This document shows, piece after piece, positions 1 through 50,752 of a DNA stretch of 64,000 bases; the first letter of the stretch is position 1; the number at the start of each line of letters is the position of its first letter. Made by a program: the position numbers and the translations under genes. Origin of the DNA: an uncultured Gammaproteobacteria bacterium (GTDB lineage Bacteria; Patescibacteriota; Microgenomatia; Daviesbacterales; UBA10151); NCBI GenBank assembly GCA_964489875.1, contig CAZAZW010000001.1, positions 183,816-247,815 on the forward strand, read 5' to 3'. The notes beneath the pieces were generated by a model, which had not been told where the DNA came from, made no database searches, and saw nothing but the letters and a program-made list of their open reading frames with translations.

Positions 1-93
1 ATTTTTTCTGACCGCATAAATTGCTGCAGTAATCCCCGAAGCTCCTCCACCAATAATAATTGTGTCAAAAATATCGGGCAGATTTTGGTCCAT
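1..93 (-). CDS. FAD/NAD(P)-binding pyridine nucleotide-disulfide oxidoreductase (TrxB-like), N-terminal fragment cut by the window edge
   Basis: Not in the ORF track. The reverse complement of 1-93 reads MDQNLPDIFDTIIIGGGASGITAAIYAVRKN. This is a GGGxxG dinucleotide-binding N-terminus, with ATG at 93-91. Confidence 0.5.
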   Translation of the reverse strand, partial: MDQNLPDIFDTIIIGGGASGITAAIYAVRKN

Positions 94-115
94 AAAAATA
101 TGTTACCATAATTTT

Positions 116-1753
116 ATGTCCCTAAAGGATGATCTACATAAAATAGTTGAAGGTGAAGTTTTCGATGATAGCGAAACTTTAACAATTTACAGCAAAGATG
201 CCTCTTTTTTTCAGATTCAACCCCAAGCAGTTATATATCCAGAAAATGCTGAGGATATTAAAAAATTAGTTAAATTTGCAACAGACAATCCTGGGGAGCA
301 TTTATCCTTGACTATCCGCTCCGGCGGCACTGATATGTCCGGAGCCGCCATCAGCGACTCCCTGATTTTAGATATGACCAAACACTTTAATAAAATTTTG
401 AAGATTGATCAGGACTCTGCCGTTGTGCAGCCGGGAGTTTTCTACCGGGATTTTGAGCCGGAAACCTTAAAAAAAGACCTATTGCTGCCAATTTATCCTG
501 CCTCTCGTGATCTGTGCACTTTAGGGGGGATGGTTAATAATAATTCAGCAGGGGAAAAGACGCTAATTTTTGGCCAAACGGAAAAATTTGTCCAATCCTT
601 AAAGGTAATCCTTTCCGACGGAAATGAATATACATTTGAACCATTGAGTAAAGATGAGTTGGATAAAAAAATTGCTCAAAAAAACTTTGAAGGGGAGATT
701 TACCAAAATATGTATAAATTAGTTACTCAAAATCAGGAGTTAATTAAATCTGCAGAACCAAAAGTATCCAAAAACTCTGCCGGTTATTTGCTTTGGAAAA
801 TCTGGGACGGACAGACTTTCGACCTAAGCAAACTGATCTGCGGAGCCCAAGGCACCCTGGGCATAGTCACTGAAACCAAATTCAGGCTAATCCAACCAAA
901 AAAACACACTAAACTGTTGGTAATGTTCCTTTATAACCTAAGTCATGTCGGTGAAATTGTGGAAGAAGTCTTAACATTTGCCCCCGAGAGCTTTGAAAGC
1001 TACGATGACCAAACTTTCCGATTTGCTGTAAAATTCTGGGCAGAACTTCTTCATGTTATCCACCCCAAAAACTTGCTGACACTCGCTTGGAATTTTATTC
1101 CGGAAGCCTACATGACTCTACAACATGGTTTTCCTAAATTAATTCTGCTGGCTGAATTTACCGGAGATAGCGAAGAAGAGGTAGCCGGAAAATGTTTGAC
1201 GGCACAAAAAGCTATTAAACATTTCCATGTCAAATCCAGGATGACTCGGGACGAAGATGATGAGAAAAAATATTTGACTGTGAGGCGGGAAAGTTTTAAT
1301 TTATTCCGCCACCATGCTGGAAATAAAAGAACAGCTCCCTTTATTGATGATGTTGTAGTAGAGCCTCGCTTTTTGCCGGAATTTTTGCCTAAACTCCAGC
1401 ATATATTAAAGCCTTATAAAAAATTTATGACCTACACCATTGCCGGCCATATCGGCAATGGCAATTTTCATATCATTCCTTTGGTAGATATGAAGGACCC
1501 CCGAGTCATCCAGGCTATTCCGGAGTTATCTAAAAAAGTATACAACCTGGTTTTTGAATATAAAGGTTCCATGACAGCTGAACACAACGACGGCTTGGTC
1601 AGAGGACCATACCTTGAACTAATGTACGGCAGAAAAGTCTATGAACTGTTTAAAGAAGTTAAAAAAATCTTTGATCCCAAAAATATCTTTAATCCTCACA
1701 AAAAGGTAGATGCCACTCTGGAGTATTCCTTAACCCATCTGGTAAAAAGTTAA
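116..1753 (+). CDS. FAD-binding oxidase, GlcD/D-lactate dehydrogenase family
   Basis: ORF 62..1753. It has an FAD-binding PCMH-type motif RSGGTDMSGAA and a C-terminal oxidase domain. ATG at 116 (MSLKDD) is preferred over GTG at 62, which would overlap the divergent gene. Confidence 0.8.
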   Translation: MSLKDDLHKIVEGEVFDDSETLTIYSKDASFFQIQPQAVIYPENAEDIKKLVKFATDNPGEHLSLTIRSGGTDMSGAAISDSLILDMTKHFNKILKIDQDSAVVQPGVFYRDFEPETLKKDLLLPIYPASRDLCTLGGMVNNNSAGEKTLIFGQTEKFVQSLKVILSDGNEYTFEPLSKDELDKKIAQKNFEGEIYQNMYKLVTQNQELIKSAEPKVSKNSAGYLLWKIWDGQTFDLSKLICGAQGTLGIVTETKFRLIQPKKHTKLLVMFLYNLSHVGEIVEEVLTFAPESFESYDDQTFRFAVKFWAELLHVIHPKNLLTLAWNFIPEAYMTLQHGFPKLILLAEFTGDSEEEVAGKCLTAQKAIKHFHVKSRMTRDEDDEKKYLTVRRESFNLFRHHAGNKRTAPFIDDVVVEPRFLPEFLPKLQHILKPYKKFMTYTIAGHIGNGNFHIIPLVDMKDPRVIQAIPELSKKVYNLVFEYKGSMTAEHNDGLVRGPYLELMYGRKVYELFKEVKKIFDPKNIFNPHKKVDATLEYSLTHLVKS

Positions 1754-16493: not shown

Positions 16494-16668
16494 CTGTTCT
16501 TTCGGGGATTTGTGTAAGTCAAAATCGGCAGTAAACTCTGCGACCCCGCACCGTCTGGTGCAGGGACGAACTGGTGAAAATCCGGTAGCGACCGTACAGT
16601 CGGGATGAAAGAAAGAATATTACACCACATGTGGTGTTGTAACCAAAATCCCCGAGAGGGGATTTTTT
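16494..16668 (+). promoter_or_regulatory. FMN riboswitch (RFN element) with intrinsic terminator
   Basis: The P1 halves are TTCTTTC (16497-16503) and GAAAGAA (16608-16614). Conserved blocks are TTCGGGG, AATCGGCAGTAAACTCTGCGACC, CTGGTGAAAATCCGGTAGCGACCGTACAGTCGGGATGAAAGAA. The terminator is AAAATCCCC-GAGA-GGGGATTTTTT at 16645-16668. An extended -10, TGgTAAAAT, sits at 16481-16489. Confidence 0.9.
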
Positions 16669-21031: not shown

Positions 21032-21102
21032 CTGCGGGGCATGGATTTGAACCATGATAGATAGCTCCAGAGGCTATCGTCCTGCCGTTAGACGACCCCG
21101 CA
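21032..21102 (-). tRNA. tRNA-Gln (anticodon CUG)
   Basis: 71 nt, folded by hand: TGCGGGG/TC/GTC-TAACGGCAG-GAC/G/ATAGC-CTCTGGA-GCTAT/CTAT/CATGG-TTCAAAT-CCATG/CCCCGCA/G. It has the U1:A72 pair typical of tRNA-Gln. No CCA is encoded. Confidence 0.9.
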
Positions 21103-23888: not shown

Positions 23889-24789
23889 AATTTGTATAGG
23901 TCCAATCTATTAACTTAGTAGTTTCTCCAAACCGATCATCGCTTCCCAAAAGAACCAGTAATATTTTGTGTCCTTTTCTCTCCACTAAAGTTACCAAACT
24001 TTCTTTTGCACCCTCGGTGGTTCCGGTTTTTACACCTAAAACTCCGTTAACAGAAGATAAAAGTTTATTTAAATTAAATAGCTGATGGGTGTATTTTTTA
24101 TTTAAAGAAACAATACTCGTTTCCTTAGTAGCAAAAATTTTCGCCAGTTGGTAATTTTTCAATGCCTCTTCCGTGATTTTAGAAAGATCTTCTGCAGATG
24201 AATAATGGTTTGGACTATCAAAACCTGCCGGGTTATCAAAATGCGTATTTACTAAACCGAGCTCTAAAGCTTTTTTGTTCATAGCCGATACAAAACCTAA
24301 AATTTTTCCCGGGTAATTTTCAGCCAAAGTATAAGCCGCATCATTGCCGGAGTTTAGAAGCAAACCATAAAGTAATGCTCGAAAGGTTAAATTCTCTCCA
24401 CTCACTAAACCCACTTTAGACCCCGGAGTATTAGCACTGCTACCAACAGTCAGCACTGAATTTTGTTTAAAATACTCGCTTGCTACCAATGCTGTCATAA
24501 TCTTGGTAGTAGAAGCAACCGGGAGAGAGATACCCGCATCTTTTTGATATAAAGTAGTACTGGTTGCTAAATCTTTTATCAAGACCGCCCGGGCGCTAAA
24601 TTCTGGAAGGGTTAAATTCTTACTTACGGGTGGGCTATTGTATTTTTGGATACCTGCCACTTGAGAGCTATTCTGAGGAATCTGTAAGCTAATAAGTAAA
24701 CCGTCAGTAAACTTAAATAGAAACGGAACAGCAGAAGCCACAATGACAGCAATTAAAATTAAACCGGCAGAATAAAAATAATATCTCAT
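23857..24789 (-). CDS. D-alanyl-D-alanine carboxypeptidase (S11 serine peptidase, PBP5-like)
   Basis: 310 aa with SxxK (ASTTKIMTA), SGN (LLNSGND) and KTG (VKTGTT). Confidence 0.85.
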   Translation of the reverse strand: MRYYFYSAGLILIAVIVASAVPFLFKFTDGLLISLQIPQNSSQVAGIQKYNSPPVSKNLTLPEFSARAVLIKDLATSTTLYQKDAGISLPVASTTKIMTALVASEYFKQNSVLTVGSSANTPGSKVGLVSGENLTFRALLYGLLLNSGNDAAYTLAENYPGKILGFVSAMNKKALELGLVNTHFDNPAGFDSPNHYSSAEDLSKITEEALKNYQLAKIFATKETSIVSLNKKYTHQLFNLNKLLSSVNGVLGVKTGTTEGAKESLVTLVERKGHKILLVLLGSDDRFGETTKLIDWTYTNFSWLEFETVR

Positions 24790-26150
24790 CAGAGCCTGAT
24801 ATCTACCCTCTCCATGTCTCTTGGGAAAAGCGAAGCTTCTCTAATATTAGCCAGACCTAAAACATGCATGGTGATTCTCTCGAGTCCAAAGGAAAATCCT
24901 CCCTCCGGGGGCATGCCATATTTAAAAGCCTGTAGATACATCTCAAAATTTTTAGGATCCATTCCCCTGCTCTTAATATTTTCAACCAATTGGTTATAAT
25001 CATTAATTCTCTGACTGCCACTCATAATCTCCACCCCCCGAAACAGTAAGTCATAGCTTAAAGAGTATTCCGGATCTTTCGGATCCGGCATTGTATAAAA
25101 CGGCTTAGCGTTAGTTGGAAAATGTGTTACTGTAACAAAATCACTGTCACGTCTTTCCTTAGACCACTGGCACAAATCGATTTCGTCCTGCGGAGTCAAA
25201 TCTTTTTCTTTTCTATTGTCACGCCCGAATTCTTTTAAAATGAGTTCTTGCGCTTCTCTTAAAGTTAGTCTGGGGATTTTTCCAAATGCAATCTTTTCAA
25301 CAGCAAAGTCTGATAAAATATTCGAGCACTCCTCTTCTGTAAGCTTTAGCATTTTAACTGCTACCCCCTCCAGAAAATCTAATAACTCTGCAAATTCTGT
25401 AAAACCAATCTCCACATCCATTTGAGTAACTTCTGTTAAGTGTCTGGTGGTAACTGAGGGTTCAGCTCGGTAAGCTTTAGCAATTGTAAATACCCGCTCG
25501 AACGGCGGCACTAACATTTGTTTATAAAGTTGCGGACTTTGAGAAAGATAAGCTTTGTGTTCAAAATAATCTATCTTAAAAACTTCTGCTCCCCCTTCTG
25601 TTGCTCCGGCCACAATTGTTGGCACCACAATTTCTGTACAACCCAGCTCCTTTGCAACTTTTCTAAATCCTTCCAAAAGACTGGCTTGAACTTTAAAAAT
25701 TGATTTAATTTTGGGATGCCTTAGAGTTAGGGAACGAAAATCGAGTAATGTTGGAAGTTGTAAATTTAAATCTTTCCCTCCCATGTCAAAAGGCAACTCT
25801 TCTGCTTTTGATAAAACTTCAATATTTTCCGCTGAAATCTCTATTTCTCCGGTGGGAATATTTTTGTTAACTAAATGTTCCGGCCTTTTATTAACTCTTC
25901 CAGTTATACAAACTACGTCTTGGGGGTGTAAACTTTCCAAATCACCTCGGATGGTGGCAGGCTGAGCTTGCGAAGCCATGACTCCTCCGAGGTGTACTAA
26001 ATTTGTTGCCACCACTTGGATTATTCCGGACCTATCCGTAATATCCAAAAATGAAATCTTTCCATGGTCTCGTTTTGTATAAACCCAACCACATACTTTA
26101 ACTTGCTCCCCAATTTTCTCTTTGCAGTCTAAAATTACTGTGCGCTCCAT
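24789..26150 (-). CDS. aspS: Aspartyl-tRNA synthetase, archaeal/type-2 form
   Basis: ORF 24789..26189, with the start moved to ATG 26150 (MERTVILD). It has QSPQLYKQML, YRAEPSVTTRHLTE and GGFSFGLERI class IIb motifs. At about 450 aa it matches the archaeal type. Confidence 0.85.
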   Translation of the reverse strand: MERTVILDCKEKIGEQVKVCGWVYTKRDHGKISFLDITDRSGIIQVVATNLVHLGGVMASQAQPATIRGDLESLHPQDVVCITGRVNKRPEHLVNKNIPTGEIEISAENIEVLSKAEELPFDMGGKDLNLQLPTLLDFRSLTLRHPKIKSIFKVQASLLEGFRKVAKELGCTEIVVPTIVAGATEGGAEVFKIDYFEHKAYLSQSPQLYKQMLVPPFERVFTIAKAYRAEPSVTTRHLTEVTQMDVEIGFTEFAELLDFLEGVAVKMLKLTEEECSNILSDFAVEKIAFGKIPRLTLREAQELILKEFGRDNRKEKDLTPQDEIDLCQWSKERRDSDFVTVTHFPTNAKPFYTMPDPKDPEYSLSYDLLFRGVEIMSGSQRINDYNQLVENIKSRGMDPKNFEMYLQAFKYGMPPEGGFSFGLERITMHVLGLANIREASLFPRDMERVDIRL

Positions 26151-26182
26151 GCTTTCTGCATCATAACAGCCAAAAGGGAATA

Positions 26183-26212
26183 TTGACAAGATGTCAGCTT
26201 CAATGTTAAAGT
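26183..26212 (+). promoter_or_regulatory. Candidate promoter of leader cassette A
   Basis: TTGACA (26183-26188), an 18-nt spacer, then an extended -10 TGtTAAAGT (26204-26212). Confidence 0.4.
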
Positions 26213-26237
26213 ACTAAAAGTTAGGCACACAAAAAAT

Positions 26238-26309
26238 ATGAATTTATTAAAAATTTGGTATTTTTACTTTACTTTTGCCTTCCGAAAGGAGGGAGGTTTA
26301 TTGGGATAA
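26238..26309 (+). CDS. Candidate aromatic-rich leader peptide (23 aa)
   Basis: Not in the ORF track. It reads MNLLKIWYFYFTFAFRKEGGLLG*. The W/Y/F codon run (26256-26282) overlaps hairpin segment 1. No clear SD is present. Confidence 0.3.
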   Translation: MNLLKIWYFYFTFAFRKEGGLLG

Positions 26310-26337
26310 CCTTATTTTAAAGGTCTTGACCAATTTT

Positions 26338-26362
26338 AGCCTCCCGAATGGGAGGTTTTTTT
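26338..26362 (+). terminator. Attenuator-type intrinsic terminator A
   Basis: CCTCCC (26340-26345), GAAT, GGGAGG (26350-26355), then T7 (26356-26362). It ends only 18 nt before the SD of the next CDS. An upstream GGGAGG (26291-26296) can pair with the same CCTCCC. Confidence 0.6.
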
Positions 26363-26393
26363 ATGAGAAAAATTATGAAAGGAGGTGTTTAAT

Positions 26394-26696
26394 ATGGCAG
26401 TTGAAAATGGAAGAGAGATTAGTTCGATCACAGAAGCTATGATCTTGGTAAAACGAGCAAAAAGAGGCGAAGAGGTTCTATCAATTTTCCCATGCGTTCA
26501 GGTTGATGACAAGGATAAAGAAATAAAATGTCCTAAGTTAGATCCAACACTTGATACTCTTTGCAAACATCCTGATGGTTTACTTTCAACAGGTAGAATC
26601 GTAGAGTGTCCTTTACAAAACGGGGTATTGGTTGATACACGCCAAGAACCCATGATAAACTCAGATGCAACATTAGTAGCAAGTTTGCGGAGATAA
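26394..26696 (+). CDS. Hypothetical small protein (100 aa, four Cys)
   Basis: ORF 26385..26696. ATG at 26394 sits 8 nt after the SD AAAGGAGGTG. No recognised motif. Confidence 0.55.
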   Translation: MAVENGREISSITEAMILVKRAKRGEEVLSIFPCVQVDDKDKEIKCPKLDPTLDTLCKHPDGLLSTGRIVECPLQNGVLVDTRQEPMINSDATLVASLRR

Positions 26697-26710
26697 TAGA
26701 GAACCAAAGA

Positions 26711-27433
26711 ATGAAGACTAAACCTTTATACCTTGACGATTCATATCTTAAAGAAATGGATGCGGAGGTTTTGGAAGTTTTGCCGGAAGGTGGAAACCAA
26801 TACCGGATGATTTTGGATCAAACGGTTTTTTATCCGATGGGCGGCGGCCAGGCTACTGATCAAGGAGAGCTAAAAGGAGATAATTGGTCAGGAGAAGTTT
26901 ACCAAGTTATAAACAGAGACGGAGAAATTTGGCATTTTGTAAAGGCAAGTACTGCTCCTATAATTGGAATTAAGGTACATGGCAGCATTAACTGGGATAG
27001 GAGATATAAAAATATGAAACTTCATTCAGCGGGTCACATTATAGATTTTGCCATGTATTTACTTGGGCTTTCCCCTAAAACCTTAGTACCGATGAAAGCG
27101 GACCATAATAAAAATCCCCACATTATTTACCAAGGCACTCTGGAAGAAGATATTAAACAAGAATTAAAAGACAAAGTTAATGAATTAGTTGCTAAAAACC
27201 TAAAACTTACTTGGTATTTTCAACCCTTAGAGGATTTACAAAAAGAAGCTATCTATCTCATCCCGGGTTTACCGACGAATAAGCCACTCCGTACTTTGAA
27301 ACTTGAAGGTGTAGGTGCAGTAGCAGATGGTGGGACTCAAGTTAAAACTACTAGTGAGGTTGGGAAAATAAACATTGACTCAATTGAAAAAGAAAACGGA
27401 CTAACAATTGTTAGATATTCCATCCTCAGTTGA
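26711..27433 (+). CDS. alaX: AlaX-type alanyl-tRNA editing protein (Thr/Ala-tRNA synthetase SAD family)
   Basis: 240 aa with HSAGHIIDFAM (HxxxH). The position of the CGGTHV motif reads ADGGTQV. Confidence 0.7.
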   Translation: MKTKPLYLDDSYLKEMDAEVLEVLPEGGNQYRMILDQTVFYPMGGGQATDQGELKGDNWSGEVYQVINRDGEIWHFVKASTAPIIGIKVHGSINWDRRYKNMKLHSAGHIIDFAMYLLGLSPKTLVPMKADHNKNPHIIYQGTLEEDIKQELKDKVNELVAKNLKLTWYFQPLEDLQKEAIYLIPGLPTNKPLRTLKLEGVGAVADGGTQVKTTSEVGKINIDSIEKENGLTIVRYSILS

Positions 27434-27458
27434 CAAATAGGTAGACTACAGTTAATAT
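27430..27458 (+). promoter_or_regulatory. Candidate promoter of leader cassette B
   Basis: TTGACA (27430-27435), a 17-nt spacer, then TAATAT (27453-27458). The leader ORF ATG at 27468 lies about at the expected TSS. Confidence 0.5.
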
Positions 27459-27467
27459 ATTAAGGTC

Positions 27468-27572
27468 ATGTCAAAAATGATCGCTATTGATTTACAAAGA
27501 GTAGAAAGTTTAGTCGTCCTCCTTATAGTGCTCCTTACCGGAGCATTCTTGGGAGGCCTTTTTAGATTTTAA
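27468..27572 (+). CDS. Candidate Leu/Val/Ile-rich leader peptide or small TM peptide (34 aa)
   Basis: Not in the ORF track. It reads MSKMIAIDLQRVESLVVLLIVLLTGAFLGGLFRF*. The branched-chain codon run overlaps hairpin segments. Confidence 0.35.
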   Translation: MSKMIAIDLQRVESLVVLLIVLLTGAFLGGLFRF

Positions 27573-27599
27573 TTAGAATCTAAAAAGAAAGGAAACTAA

Positions 27600-27624
27600 A
27601 GCCTCCCAAACGGGAGGTTTTTTT
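27600..27624 (+). terminator. Attenuator-type intrinsic terminator B (paralog of A)
   Basis: AGCCTCCC, AAAC, GGGAGG, then T7 (27618-27624). It ends 18 nt before the SD AAAGGAGGT. An upstream GGGAGGC (27551-27557) can pair with GCCTCCC (27601-27607). Confidence 0.6.
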
Positions 27625-27657
27625 GTGGAAAAAAATATGAAAGGAGGTAAATAAATA

Positions 27658-27897
27658 ATGGCAAGATTAGAAGGCGAACCAACTCATTCAAGAATATTTC
27701 GTAACGGCGAGAATGGTGTTTTACAAGCTAGGGGTTTTGGTGGAGTAGATCCAGATAATTGGAGGTTTAATCCTGACACACAAAATTATGATTATATAGG
27801 AGAACCTGATGAAATTGATCCTACTTCTGTTTTACCAGAACAACCCATGGACCAAAAGGTACCAGTAATCAAAGACGTTCCTCAAATAAGACAATAA
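27658..27897 (+). CDS. Hypothetical small acidic protein (79 aa)
   Basis: The ORF follows the SD GGAGG at 27643-27647. No recognised motif. Confidence 0.5.
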   Translation: MARLEGEPTHSRIFRNGENGVLQARGFGGVDPDNWRFNPDTQNYDYIGEPDEIDPTSVLPEQPMDQKVPVIKDVPQIRQ

Positions 27898-27908
27898 AGT
27901 TTTATCTT

Positions 27909-29486
27909 TTAACCGACCTTTATATCCCTAACTTTTAACTGTAGCTTATTGTTACCATTATAGTTATCAAGTTCCAGATTATATGCTAGGTCTATGATTT
28001 GGCCGGATTGCAACATACCTGCCCACTCGCCCATTCCAAAAGCAATAAAATCCAAGCCTTCTACTTTACCCTTCAAATGCTTACCTTCACCTACTGTTCT
28101 TAAATCCGAAGCTCTCATGCTTTTGGTAGCAAAAATAGGTTTTCTATTATCCAATCCGAAAGGTTCAAATTTTTGAAGTTCATCTATTAAACTTTTAGTC
28201 AAATGTTTGCCGATTACTTCAGCATCTATCTCCAAAACTCTTTCTTCCTCCGGTAAAATTATCTTCTGTTTTTCTAACCTTTTTTTAAAAATTTCTATGT
28301 GTTTGTTATAAAGGGAAAAACCTGCCGCACCGGGATGACCCCCTACATCAATTAAAATATCAACATGCTCTCTGATTAGCTCCACAATATTTATCCCGTC
28401 TATGGAACGGGCTGAGCCTTTGGAAATTTCTTCACCTATGGATATGGCTACTGTCGGACGATTATATCCTTCCGAAATTTTACCCGCCACCAAACCAATA
28501 ATGCCGGCAGACCAATCTTTGCTGGCTAAAACGTGAATCTTCTGCCCTTCATCAACCAACAATTTAGCTTGCTCAAATGCTTCTGTTGTCATCTTCTGAC
28601 GACTGGCATTGGTTTCACATAAAAGCTGGGCTAATTTCTTTGCCTTAAGTGGATCTTTGGTACAAAGAAGCCGCAGACTATCTATGGCATGCTCTAATCT
28701 GCCCATGGCATTTAACCGGGGTCCTATCATATAGCCTATTTCAAAAGAACCAATATCTTTTGGGCTGATACCACATTCATTAACTAATGCCAGTAACCCC
28801 AGATTAGTAGTCTTGTTCAGAATCTGCAATCCTTCAAAAACAAATGCCCGGCCCAAACCAACAAGAGGAAGAAGATCACAAACTGTAGCAATTGCTGCAA
28901 ATTGCAAGAGTTCCATTACTAACTCTTTTTTAACTAAGTCTTTAATTAAACACCAGGCTACTGCTGCCCCGCACATTTTAGTGGAATGCACTATCTCAAA
29001 AGCATCCGGTTTTTCCTTTCCCGGAACATGGTGATCTGTAATAATGAGATCTAAACCGATTTCTCTGGCAAATTTTGCTTGCTTCACTGCCACAATTCCA
29101 TTGTCCACAGTAATAACAAGCGAAGCTCCGCTGTCCCTCGCAAATTCCAATCCCAACTTTGATAATCCATAACCTTCCTTTTCTCGATGAGGAATGTAAG
29201 GCAAAACTTTTGCACCAATTGAGGTCAGGGCTTTATACAAAATCGCACTGGAGCAAATTCCATCAACATCATAATCACCAAAAACAATTATTAACTCGTC
29301 TTTTTCTATAGCTTGCAGAATCCTTTTAGTAGCCTTGGGAATCCCCGGAATTTTTAGGTCACTATCAAAATCTTTTATTGTGGGGTGGAAAAATTGTTCC
29401 TTGTCTTTAGCTGTTTTTATACCGCGGTTTATTAGTAATTGCTCAACCAAATCATCAGATTTTTTGGGGAGTATTTTCCATTTCAT
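27909..29486 (-). CDS. recJ: Single-stranded-DNA-specific exonuclease RecJ
   Basis: 525 aa with DHH-family motifs GDYDVDG, TVDNG and ITDHH, and DHHA1 GGHPGAAG. Confidence 0.9.
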   Translation of the reverse strand: MKWKILPKKSDDLVEQLLINRGIKTAKDKEQFFHPTIKDFDSDLKIPGIPKATKRILQAIEKDELIIVFGDYDVDGICSSAILYKALTSIGAKVLPYIPHREKEGYGLSKLGLEFARDSGASLVITVDNGIVAVKQAKFAREIGLDLIITDHHVPGKEKPDAFEIVHSTKMCGAAVAWCLIKDLVKKELVMELLQFAAIATVCDLLPLVGLGRAFVFEGLQILNKTTNLGLLALVNECGISPKDIGSFEIGYMIGPRLNAMGRLEHAIDSLRLLCTKDPLKAKKLAQLLCETNASRQKMTTEAFEQAKLLVDEGQKIHVLASKDWSAGIIGLVAGKISEGYNRPTVAISIGEEISKGSARSIDGINIVELIREHVDILIDVGGHPGAAGFSLYNKHIEIFKKRLEKQKIILPEEERVLEIDAEVIGKHLTKSLIDELQKFEPFGLDNRKPIFATKSMRASDLRTVGEGKHLKGKVEGLDFIAFGMGEWAGMLQSGQIIDLAYNLELDNYNGNNKLQLKVRDIKVG

Positions 29487-40709: not shown

Positions 40710-40979
40710 AATGCCTAGGAGGAGAGTAAGCCAGATTCTGTTTTAGATGATCATTTATCTAACGCTCCTGATTTCGACAATTAAGCAAGCAGCTCTGTCG
40801 GTTCTAGGATTGCAGCGGGGAGGATTGCCACGTTTCACCCGAGCTTTACCCCGGTTCGTCACTGTTGCTCTAACTAGGCCTTGCGGCTTCCGGCTTACGC
40901 CGGACACCCTGCTTTATGCTGTCTGGACTTTCCTATCTGTACCAAATGGCACAGATTAATCATCCTTCTTCCTAGGCTT
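40710..40979 (-). ncRNA. rnpB: RNase P RNA (bacterial type A-like, compact, about 270 nt)
   Basis: The minus strand shows AGGAAAGTCCAGACAGC (CR-I, consensus GAGGAAAGUCCGGGC), GGGTGAAACG, and ACAGAATCTGGCTTA (CR-V, consensus ACAGAACCCGGCUUA). P1 is GCCTAGG...CCTAGGC. TATAAT lies just upstream (40983-40988) and a T-run follows the 3' end. Ends are approximate to within 5 nt. Confidence 0.85.
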
Positions 40980-50680: not shown

Positions 50681-50752
50681 TCGGGGTGACAAGAATTGAA
50701 CTTGCTGCATCCGCGACCCCATCGCGGCGGTCTACCGATGACCTACACCCCG
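50681..50752 (-). tRNA. tRNA-Pro (anticodon GGG)
   Basis: 72 nt, folded by hand: CGGGGTG/TA/GGTC-ATCGGTA-GACC/G/CCGCG-ATGGGGT-CGCGG/ATGCA/GCAAG-TTCAATT-CTTGT/CACCCCG/A. Confidence 0.85.

Follow-up and report, generated by a model that had tools for sequence, protein, structure and literature searches.

Among the described systems closest to the element reported here are the enterobacterial leu (RF00512) and ilvGMEDA/ilvBN leaders, in which an open reading frame (ORF) with a run of Leu (or Leu, Val and Ile) codons and a set of 1:2, 2:3 and 3:4 pairings lead up to a terminator before the first structural gene. Read-through occurs in these leaders when the cognate charged tRNA is scarce. Outside Proteobacteria, leader-peptide attenuators of ilvB, leu and trp have been found by comparative genomics in Actinobacteria, including Corynebacterium (PMC1262725; PMC10272879), and a codon run that matches the downstream pathway is the standard comparative-genomic signature of such attenuation (PMC1262725, PMC2965389). 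In mycobacteria, attenuators with leaderless polycysteine short ORFs make up a "Cys ribulon", in which stalling frees a sequestered ribosome-binding site (Canestrari et al., 10.1101/834739). Here we describe an element at positions 27430-27657 of a 64 kb stretch of DNA (contig CAZAZW010000001.1, the whole stretch being referred to as the window) from a bacterium of the GTDB lineage Daviesbacterales. This element, leader B, is very probably a ribosome-mediated (leader-peptide) transcription attenuator that senses the supply of leucine, as charged tRNA-Leu, and gates a gene for a protein of 79 amino acids (aa). A sister element, leader A, lies upstream of it in the window.

The host belongs to the Patescibacteria, or candidate phyla radiation (CPR). 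These bacteria are uncultured and have very small genomes, are thought to be poor in regulatory capacity and dependent on a host for amino acids, and are usually described as lacking most amino-acid biosynthesis. A literature search combining CPR or Patescibacteria with leader-peptide attenuation found no report, which is not proof of absence.

Leader B is on the plus strand and begins with a sigma-70-type promoter (27430-27458) that agrees with the consensus at 10 of 12 positions. Its -35 box TTGACA (27430-27435) overlaps the stop codon of the preceding gene, alaX, and is separated by a spacer of 17 nucleotides (nt) from the -10 box TAATAT (27453-27458). Equivalent promoters were found in the same place in relatives. 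The ATG of a 34-codon leader ORF (27468-27572, translated as MSKMIAIDLQRVESLVVLLIVLLTGAFLGGLFRF) follows the -10 hexamer after a gap of 9 nt. Eight of the 34 codons are Leu, and the Leu-rich run LVVLLIVLL, at about 27510-27536, consists of five Leu, three Val and one Ile. Segment 1 (CCUCCU, 27518-27523, with CCTCC at 27518-27522) lies inside these Leu and Val codons and has segment 2 (GGGAGGC, 27551-27557) as its partner. Nested in the 1:2 helix is an inner hairpin, AGUGCUCC-UUACC-GGAGCAUU (27527-27547), which took the form GTGCTCC/GGAGCAT in minimum-free-energy folds and is a probable stabiliser or pause hairpin.

Segment 2 can pair alternatively with segment 3, and this 2:3 helix is the antiterminator. 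A middle hairpin, CCUUUUUAGAUUUU-AAUU-AGAAUCUAAAAAG (27558-27587), spans the leader stop codon (27570-27572) and is located in the loop of the 2:3 helix, where it drew segments 2 and 3 together in the folds. The intrinsic terminator (27598-27624) is composed of segment 3 (AAAGCCUCCC, 27598-27607, with its pairing core GCCTCCC at 27601-27607), a loop AAAC, segment 4 (GGGAGGUUUU) and a tract of seven U (27618-27624); its hairpin has a folding energy of about -15 kcal/mol. The 3′ arm of the terminator, GGGAGG (27612-27617), is also a Shine-Dalgarno (SD) sequence. A nine-codon upstream ORF (uORF, GTG to TAA, MEKNMKGGK, 27625-27654) starts 7 nt past it, overlaps the main SD AAAGGAGGU of the 79-aa gene (27640-27648) and ends 3 nt before the main ATG. 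The same SD box stands before many genes in relatives. The regulated gene itself (27658-27897, plus strand) encodes an orphan protein with the conserved core IFRNG..GVDPDNWRFNPDTQNYDYIG and three Leu residues (3.8%). No promoter was predicted between the terminator and this gene, and the gap of 33 nt has no room for one; an independent promoter, which could have uncoupled the gene from its leader, was thus not found. The original prediction, made from the sequence by eye, had placed the promoter, the 34-codon ORF, CCTCC, GGGAGGC, GCCTCCC and the inner hairpin at the positions given here, and sequence and folds agreed with it on each.

As a whole, the RNA of leader B folded at -66.5 kcal/mol, compared to -40.0 +/- 4.0 kcal/mol in shuffles (z = -6.6). 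Codons V17 to L23 coincide with segment 1 and the 5′ strand of the inner hairpin (27516-27536), and the leader stop codon at 27570 is 13 nt past segment 2. The standard ribosome footprint is the basis of the argument from geometry: given this placement of codons and stop, a stalled ribosome would mask segment 1 and a ribosome at the stop would mask segment 2. Leader B thus combines the anatomical features by which leader-peptide attenuators are recognised, namely a codon-run ORF, an intrinsic terminator, mutually exclusive and conserved 1:2, 2:3 and 3:4 pairings, and the appropriate position of run and stop.

We propose that transcription would start at the ATG at 27468 or a few nt before it. 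The message would then be leaderless, and translation of the leader ORF would be in step with the polymerase from its very beginning. While Leu-tRNA is plentiful, the ribosome would pass LVVLLIVLL, reach the stop at 27570 and cover segment 2 together with the 5′ half of the middle hairpin. With segment 2 covered, segment 3 (GCCUCCC) would pair with segment 4 (GGGAGG) and the polymerase would terminate at the U7 tract. When Leu-tRNA is scarce, the ribosome would stall on the Leu codons, on segment 1, and leave segment 2 free to pair with segment 3. The 2:3 helix, closed by the middle hairpin, would prevent the terminator from forming, and the polymerase would read into the 79-aa gene. Segment 4 would be single-stranded in this read-through state, and initiation at the start codon 7 nt further on could then use it as an SD.

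Relatives of the element were surveyed by scanning one genome per species with the pattern GCCTCCC-N4-5-GGGAGGTTTTTTTRTG, which recovered at least 119 stretches. For comparison, some 90 related leaders were drawn from genomes of Daviesbacteria, Levybacteria and other CPR bacteria; individual loci are cited below by L numbers. CPR-like hosts, which are low in G+C, included Daviesbacteria, Levybacteria, Curtissbacteria, Gottesmanbacteria, Saccharimonadales and many CPR-looking metagenome-assembled genomes (MAGs) labelled "uncultured Gammaproteobacteria". Among the matches listed, GGGAGG was present within 120 nt upstream of the hairpin in 60 of the 78 from CPR-like hosts and in 1 of the 49 from other phyla, and the mini-ORF of the CPR-like matches ended 21-56 nt short of it. 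Matches from other phyla (Flavobacteria, Chitinophagales, Azospirillum and others) were mostly hairpins behind a gene, with nothing special upstream. A mini-ORF was called in 8 of these 49 listed matches, three of which were Vibrio leaders with a run of Phe codons (MPLTHLFFFDLFFLR) upstream of a 392-aa ORF, an apparent pheA by its PheA-like N-terminus alone. The three Vibrio leaders served as a positive control and possessed a shorter GGAGG instead of GGGAGG.

The codon runs of the CPR leaders fell into several classes. An aromatic class had runs such as NFGFYFT and WYFYFTF, the latter type being represented in the window by leader A, and there were an Ile class (IIEIII, L108), a Thr class (TTTTT, L106 and L116), a Cys class (CCC and CCCC in L038 and L078, with poly-Cys leaders overall in L038, L068, L077, L078, L095, L104 and L105) and a Val/Leu class (VVVLLL, L028). 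Type-B leaders, to which leader B belongs, were 30-36 codons long, with an L/V/I-rich part followed by LGGLF(R). Leader amino-acid bias predicted the pathway of the downstream enzyme wherever an enzyme was recognisable. Aromatic-run leaders preceded DAHP synthase in L057 (TIGR00034, 418.6 bits against a cut-off of 173.2), L093, L108 and L076, and prephenate dehydratase in L040. Type-B or other Ile/Val/Leu leaders preceded the large subunit of biosynthetic acetolactate synthase in L053 and L067 (TIGR00118 above cut-off), and the acetolactate synthase gene behind the type-B leader of L047 was cut at its end. An Ile-run leader was found before citramalate synthase (L071, TIGR00977 above cut-off), a Cys-Cys leader before cysteine synthase (L104, TIGR01136 above cut-off), Thr/Lys-rich leaders before aspartate kinase (L044 and L060), and a leader with Ser codons (SPSS) before a fusion of SerB and phosphoglycerate dehydrogenase (L128). 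The modular family of amino-acid sensors on a common terminator/SD platform that had been suggested from the two leaders of the window was in this way supported by a cassette scan and a tabulation of mini-ORF bias, both of which had been proposed with it.

The cassette of leader B could also be nothing else than two adjoining parts, the alaX operon's terminator and a strong ribosome-binding site for the gene that comes next, with a fortuitous mini-ORF and fortuitous pairings. Read-through transcripts from leader A and alaX must indeed meet this terminator too, and its downstream box GAAAGGAGGT is a common ribosome-binding site in these genomes. The survey speaks otherwise, as 48 of the 49 listed matches from other phyla lack the upstream GGGAGG that most CPR-like ones carry; the same contrast disposes of the generic terminator that the original prediction had itself held against its proposal. 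A promoter, an ORF and four covarying helices were kept together in at least 17 leaders, and past the hairpin the 79-aa gene has no promoter. We regard this explanation as largely refuted and hardly credible.

The GAAAGGAGGT box also bears on the relationship between the two leaders of the window. Their cassettes, described by eye as about 85% identical and paralogous, aligned over 49 nt (26338-26386 and 27600-27648) with 88% identity and formed the longest direct repeat pair listed in the window. The sequence GCCTCCCNNNNGGGAGGTTTTT (core GCCTCCC-N4-GGGAGG-T5), with up to two mismatches, occurred exactly twice, where shuffles gave an expectation of 0.02 and none of 100 reached two; AAAAAWTATGAAAGGAGGT likewise had just two occurrences in the window. 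The likeness is therefore real. The 3′ third of the cassette consists of GAAAGGAGGT and an A-rich tract and was met again in relatives, in front of many genes unrelated to each other. It is therefore probably the standard site for strong ribosome binding in these genomes, and the similarity of A and B thus partly reflects a shared consensus and not paralogy. The flanking coding sequences were unrelated, as had been noted.

A common RNA structure was evident in type-B leaders. Folded independently, all 12 shared one four-helix architecture, in which segment 1 (CCUCC, in hydrophobic codons) pairs with segment 2 (GGGAGG) as an outer helix around the inner hairpin, a middle hairpin extends across the leader stop codon, and segments 3 and 4 form the terminator. 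A MAFFT alignment of full leaders misaligned the hairpins and was replaced by a covariance-model alignment. The covariance model, R1, was built from the 12 type-B leaders, following a suggestion made with the two cassettes, and a search with it recovered further type-B leaders with other terminator sequences. Covariation was assessed on 17 leaders aligned to R1, and the figures lean towards the model structure because the alignment was fitted to it. Standard pairs made up 90.6% of cells, compared to 48-67% in controls with slid partners, and 11 pairs were changed on both sides, against 4.7 +/- 1.7 in shuffles (none of 500 reached 11). Helices 1 and 2 were 95.6-97.1% paired. The inner hairpin (helix 3) was the most informative, with six of eight pairs changed on both sides and with the variants GUGCUCC/GGAGCAU, GGGGUAAU/AUUACCCC and GGCACUC/GAGUGCU. 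The middle hairpin (helix 4) was 94.1% paired and alternated between AGAU/AUCU and AGGU/ACCU, one pair being AU in eight leaders and GC in eight. Segments 2, 3 and 4 had changed together in L051 (AAGGAGGCC / GGCCUCCUU / AGGAGGCU) and L113 (UGUUUGGGAGA / UCUCCCAAACA / GGGAGAUU), and a coordinated change was also seen in L103 and L091 (GGGAGGUC / GACCUCCC). Between them, the 17 leaders and these divergent ones indicate that compensatory changes have preserved the alternative pairings.

The tip of the middle hairpin is an imperfect palindrome. Its sequence in the window, tagattttaattagaatcta (27563-27582), is the exact reverse complement of tagattctaattaaaatcta, the version found in L001 (3901-3920) and L009 (64-83). 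The difference must have come about by an inversion of the tip or by two substitutions (U.G to C-A) that happen to coincide.

Folding with parts of the RNA blocked reproduced the expected switch. With the 5′ part blocked up to segment 1, to mimic stalling of a ribosome on the Leu/Val codons, the fold changed from the terminator to the 2:3 helix closed by the middle hairpin in 8 of the 12 type-B leaders, including that of the window, where the proposed antiterminator pairing of GGGAGGC with GCCTCCC formed. Only the terminator was left when the RNA was blocked to 12 nt past the stop. An extension of the 2:3 helix past its 7-bp core was considered and is not claimed, as complementarity by eye was inconsistent.

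Homologues of the 79-aa protein, a search for which had been recommended, gave a test of the association from the protein side. Neither the 79-aa protein nor the 100-aa protein behind leader A nor the mini-ORF had a match in Pfam or NCBIfam. Very few close homologues of the 79-aa protein were found, on syntenic contigs that kept both leaders. A profile search extended these to a small orphan family of 55-84 aa with the motif IFGNG..GVDPxNWRFNxxTQNYDYIG. Nine loci were fetched independently of the RNA, through homologues that share between 33% and 70% identity with the window protein, and all nine had a type-B leader immediately upstream on the same strand, scoring 64.6-116.9 bits with R1. Eight of these loci were new and one was the L001 species again. 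The leader peptide read ...ESLVVLLxVLLxGAxLGGLFR(F) in seven of the eight distinct leaders and contained LLVLLSLVL in L131. Leader peptides were better conserved than the proteins of the 79-aa family.

A metagenome scan with the profile of the 79-aa protein recovered only the L001 species. Profile matches of the family within giant proteins were treated as compositional, since they fell in heterogeneous, unrelated repeat types (YDG, cadherin-like, SprB). AlphaFold2 models of the protein were poor (predicted local distance difference test scores of 52 and 61), with one confident beta-hairpin. In L131, a second, divergent attenuator-like hairpin (60-300, minus strand) is placed back to back with the type-B leader, and the small-protein gene is convergent with a homologue of RelA/SpoT (757-2190), the stringent-response enzyme.

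The conservation of the leader peptide raises the question whether the 34-codon ORF is a functional small hydrophobic membrane peptide, such as a type I toxin or micro-protein, with the hairpin as its terminator and the 79-aa gene expressed by leaky read-through. The original prediction had mentioned a small transmembrane toxin or peptide as an alternative. The stretch LVVLLIVLLTGAFLGGLF does resemble a transmembrane segment, relatives keep the peptide at the amino-acid level, with changes of both the synonymous and the non-synonymous kind, and a leader peptide can have a function in trans, as peTrpL does (PMC7298713). Against this, the same type of peptide and RNA architecture was found directly before acetolactate synthase (L053 at 3205, and L047), and elsewhere in the family the hydrophobic run was swapped for Phe/Tyr, Ile, Thr or Cys runs matching the downstream pathway while the RNA pairings stayed. 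Moreover, the conserved C-terminal LGG is encoded by exactly the antiterminator strand, the differences in the inner hairpin within the ORF were compensatory at the RNA level, and no antisense promoter or antitoxin-like feature was seen. We consider a membrane peptide very improbable, and the toxin alternative was not supported.

The composition of the regulated proteins provided a further line of evidence. The 79-aa family contains 2.9% Leu, 8.7% Ile and 5.9% Val. Small ORFs of the different leader classes were compared using one protein per homologous cluster, with modest samples and with classes assigned by eye. Small ORFs behind type-B leaders had a median of 3.8% Leu, compared to 8.3% in the other groups (p = 2.7e-4), and their Ile and Val contents were normal. 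Those behind aromatic leaders had a median of 3.0% Phe/Tyr/Trp, compared to 8.1% (p = 1.4e-4), and those behind Ile leaders 5.7% Ile, compared to 8.1% (p = 0.018). This pattern supports both the translation of the small ORFs and the sensing by each leader of the amino acid of its codon run. The idea that the small ORFs had decayed from the enzymes found behind the same leaders in relatives was rejected, because a BLASTP comparison of every small ORF with every downstream protein turned up no match of this kind. Because Leu, and not Ile or Val, is depleted behind type-B leaders, we call leader B a Leu sensor. The Leu/Val/Ile sensing at first ascribed to it held up in so far as the element appears to be an attenuator, and it looks Leu-specific rather than generally responsive to the three amino acids.

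Ribosomes could also stall on the leader for a reason other than leucine shortage, such as an antibiotic or general translation stress, in which case the hydrophobic run would be incidental. The target gene has no link to leucine metabolism, and type-B peptides have an N-terminus (M-x-K-x-[VIL]-x-[IL]-[DN]-L) whose conservation exceeds what the counting of codons alone would require, which hints that the nascent peptide may have a role. Such a cause of stalling would leave unexplained that leader runs match enzymes amino acid by amino acid across the family and that the regulated proteins are depleted selectively in Leu and not in Ile or Val. In addition, no gene of a resistance type (ABC-F, methyltransferase or efflux) was found downstream of the type-B leaders examined. 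The chance that leucine is not what leader B responds to in this sense seems to us very small.

Several observations weigh against a leucine-sensing attenuator. Segments 2, 3 and 4 are nearly invariant (CCUCCC/GGGAGG), and covariation of the decisive 2:3 pairing therefore comes from a handful of divergent leaders. In the blocked-ribosome fold, 4 of the 12 type-B leaders kept the terminator. The ribosome-free nascent B leader, up to 27611, already prefers 2:3 thermodynamically, so that the default terminated state must depend on folding kinetics, with 1:2 forming first. The codon run contains Val and Ile as well, so its Leu specificity is deduced from composition, and it is a Leu-poor composition, not a function, that ties the 79-aa target to leucine. 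Most leaders were ascertained through one terminator pattern and were assigned to classes by eye. Finally, the transcription start site, the stalling and the efficiency of termination are predictions from the sequence.

Translation of the leader peptides is most likely from leaderless transcripts, judging by promoter geometry. Of the 43 family members whose promoter agreed with the consensus at 10 or more of the 12 positions, 27 had their first ATG 6-9 nt past the -10 box, where it opened the leader ORF. At the other end of the leader, GGGAGG-U7 was directly followed by ATG, GTG or TTG in 10 of the 12 leaders that had been found without an RTG pattern. The codon after the U tract was the start of the main gene in L047, L053 (3205), L091, L096, L101, L108, L109 and L134, the acetolactate synthase of L047 and L053 being among these genes. 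Equivalents of the nine-codon uORF, of 8-9 codons and ending 1-4 nt before the main start, were present in cassette A, L009, L129, L130, L135 and L136. The SD box is read in different frames at different loci (KGG or ERR), and the arrangement of the uORF is thus conserved and its peptide is not; any function of the uORF is putative. As an SD, the 3′ arm of the terminator may add a second, translational layer of control, which would be a compact union of transcriptional and translational attenuation.

These data also allow the hairpin to be read as acting only or mainly on translation, with 3:4 sequestering the SD-like GGGAGG, stalling freeing it and no real termination taking place. The erm/cat leaders and the mycobacterial Cys short ORFs are precedents for translational control. 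GGGAGG-U7-RUG is a well-spaced module of SD, spacer and start, the eight main genes just listed use it, and a start codon past the U tract was seen independently of any search for RTG. The mycobacterial precedent, too, sequesters a ribosome-binding site (10.1101/834739). SD spacing has no need for a U run, and yet nearly every member, those recovered with the covariance model included, has an unbroken stretch of 6-8 U directly behind its G+C-rich stem, as is characteristic of intrinsic terminators. The strong SD of the 79-aa gene in the window is situated outside the hairpin, and sequestering GGGAGG alone would not be sufficient to control this gene. A purely translational switch is therefore unlikely. 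Transcription attenuation and translational control are compatible, and we think that both operate.

In L001 and L134 the main ORF shares its reading frame with the codon after the U tract. The called 189-aa product of L001 (2467-3036) begins within its leader A and reads through the terminator; the 149-aa call of other contigs, which starts at the ATG after the U tract, is the plausible one of the two. Leaders of this kind lead to mis-extended gene calls, and leader ORFs and many small ORFs are probably missed or mis-extended by gene callers.

Leader A (26183-26393, plus strand) is built in the same way. It is composed of a promoter (26183-26212), a leader ORF with aromatic codons as sensor (MNLLKIWYFYFTFAFRKEGGLLG, 26238-26309), segment 1 (CCUUCC, 26278-26283), segment 2 (GGAGGGAGG, 26288-26296), a terminator that was listed by the terminator scan (26338-26362) and a uORF (26363-26392). 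In both leaders of the window the uORF runs over the main SD and stops 1-3 nt short of the main ATG. Upstream is an AspRS-like gene (24789-26189, minus strand). The leader is directly followed by the 100-aa ORF (26394-26696, plus strand), and alaX (26711-27433, plus strand), for an AlaX-type editing protein, is placed between this ORF and leader B. Downstream of the 79-aa gene is a convergent recJ (27909-29486).

The output behind leader A varied between loci. Leader A was nearly identical to the leader before DAHP synthase in Daviesbacteria L057 (2866-4077, minus strand). In the window the same WYFYFTF leader precedes the 100-aa ORF, which has just one aromatic residue, and in L001 it precedes an unrelated 149-aa ORF. 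The 100-aa ORF is homologous to an 87-aa ORF behind a different aromatic leader in L072 (34% identity, E = 7e-9). One output appears to have been exchanged for another while the sensor was conserved. In the window, L001, L057, L130 and L137, alaX was the final gene ahead of leader B in the stretch that begins with the aromatic leader. It came after DAHP synthase in L057, after a prephenate dehydrogenase/dehydratase gene in L137, and after small ORFs in the window and L001. Its product is a free-standing alanyl-tRNA editing domain, and alaX may be co-regulated by the supply of aromatic amino acids.

Two loci carried three attenuators in a row. In L053 (2421-5110) these were a Leu-rich leader with a 95-aa ORF, an Ile/Leu leader with acetolactate synthase and an aromatic leader with a 98-aa ORF. 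In L071 (208-3333) an Ile leader with citramalate synthase was followed by an aromatic leader with a 380-aa protein and a YYYY leader with a 323-aa protein; neither of these two proteins had a Pfam match. The poly-Cys leaders (CCC, CCCC) of L038, L078, L105 and L068 preceded PIG-L/LmbE-type deacetylases and a class I methyltransferase, not cysteine synthase, and may mark a pathway of CPR bacteria that makes low-molecular-weight thiols or consumes cysteine in some other way. About 40 loci in addition to L012, L014, L015 and L019 were titled "uncultured Gammaproteobacteria bacterium" (TPA_asm) and came from MAGs with 33-42% G+C. Many of these MAGs shared leaders and small ORFs with Levybacteria and Daviesbacteria, and their Gammaproteobacteria label looks wrong.

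It is a serious though tentative possibility that CPR bacteria possess a multi-amino-acid "ribulon". This would consist of dozens of leaderless attenuators on one CCUCCC/GGGAGG-U7 platform that acts on transcription and translation, each with its own specificity (Phe/Tyr, Leu, Ile, Thr, Cys or a different amino acid), and many of them driving not enzymes but fast-evolving orphans of 55-150 aa poor in the sensed amino acid. The 79-aa protein would then be a new kind of leucine-starvation effector, for example in scavenging, host manipulation or growth arrest. Abundant amino-acid-specific attenuators would mean that CPR bacteria monitor single amino acids via the ribosome, and their amino-acid response could be read genome by genome from sequence alone. 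The orphan small proteins would be marked as starvation-induced products, a first functional handle on them. That they contain so little of the sensed amino acid is separate evidence for their being real proteins made under starvation. The main interest of leader B is this family and its unexplained starvation-linked small proteins.

A scan of the whole window against Rfam in gathering mode gave no match at 26-28 kb, and in E-value mode the region 26100-27700 gave only sub-threshold matches; in that region neither a T-box riboswitch nor another curated cis-regulatory model reached its threshold. Matches at the gathering threshold elsewhere in the window were an FMN riboswitch (16494-16620, plus strand, 91 bits), a bacterial RNase P RNA (40711-40975, minus strand, 112 bits, a 265-nt match to a model of 367 positions) and two tRNAs (21032-21102 and 50681-50752, both minus strand). 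The Leu_leader model (RF00512) scored 21.9 bits at 27556-27625 (E = 0.11, gathering score 50), and leader B is not a member of that family. Phe_leader (RF01859, gathering score 55) scored 35.6 bits at 27544-27627 and 25.6 bits at 26245-26364, in a match limited to the terminator/antiterminator part, and neither leader is a member of it.

Leader B therefore has to be compared with known systems by organisation. Like the leu and ilv leaders, it is proposed to be read through when its cognate charged tRNA is scarce, and the ilvG leader, of 32 aa, is similar to it in length and in its mixed Leu/Val/Ile composition. Unlike them, leader B has a probably leaderless ORF, an extra conserved hairpin between segments 2 and 3 and a terminator arm that doubles as an SD for a start codon; its host is a CPR bacterium, and its target is an orphan 79-aa protein in place of leu or ilv enzymes. 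The pheL leader (Phe_leader RF01859; PMC3082878), the best sub-threshold Rfam match, has the same GCCUCCC...GGGAGG-U(n) terminator/antiterminator, and the covariance model built here matched the Vibrio Phe-run leaders at 42-44 bits. It differs in the amino acid sensed and in the lack of a middle hairpin, so that the likeness is in the expression platform only. The start of pheL is SD-led.

The mycobacterial Cys ribulon has a leaderless sensory first cistron, which promoter geometry makes likely for the CPR family too, and stalling on a codon run remodels its RNA, as is proposed for the CPR leaders. It spans many independent loci for one amino acid, and the CPR family includes poly-Cys leaders as well. 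The CPR leaders differ in having a canonical U-tract terminator in addition and in covering at least five amino-acid classes, not Cys alone. Among the actinobacterial attenuators, the ilvB uORF is rich in branched-chain codons and controls acetolactate synthase, and the type-B leaders of L047 and L053 are equally placed. Those attenuators have unrelated sequences, belong to another phylum, always have biosynthetic operons as targets and have no reported CCUCCC/GGGAGG platform. In its proposed mechanism, leader B is of the classical leu, ilv and pheA attenuator type. What differs from these is the probably leaderless ORF, the middle hairpin, the combined terminator and SD, the use of one platform for at least five amino-acid classes, the CPR host and the frequency of orphan targets.

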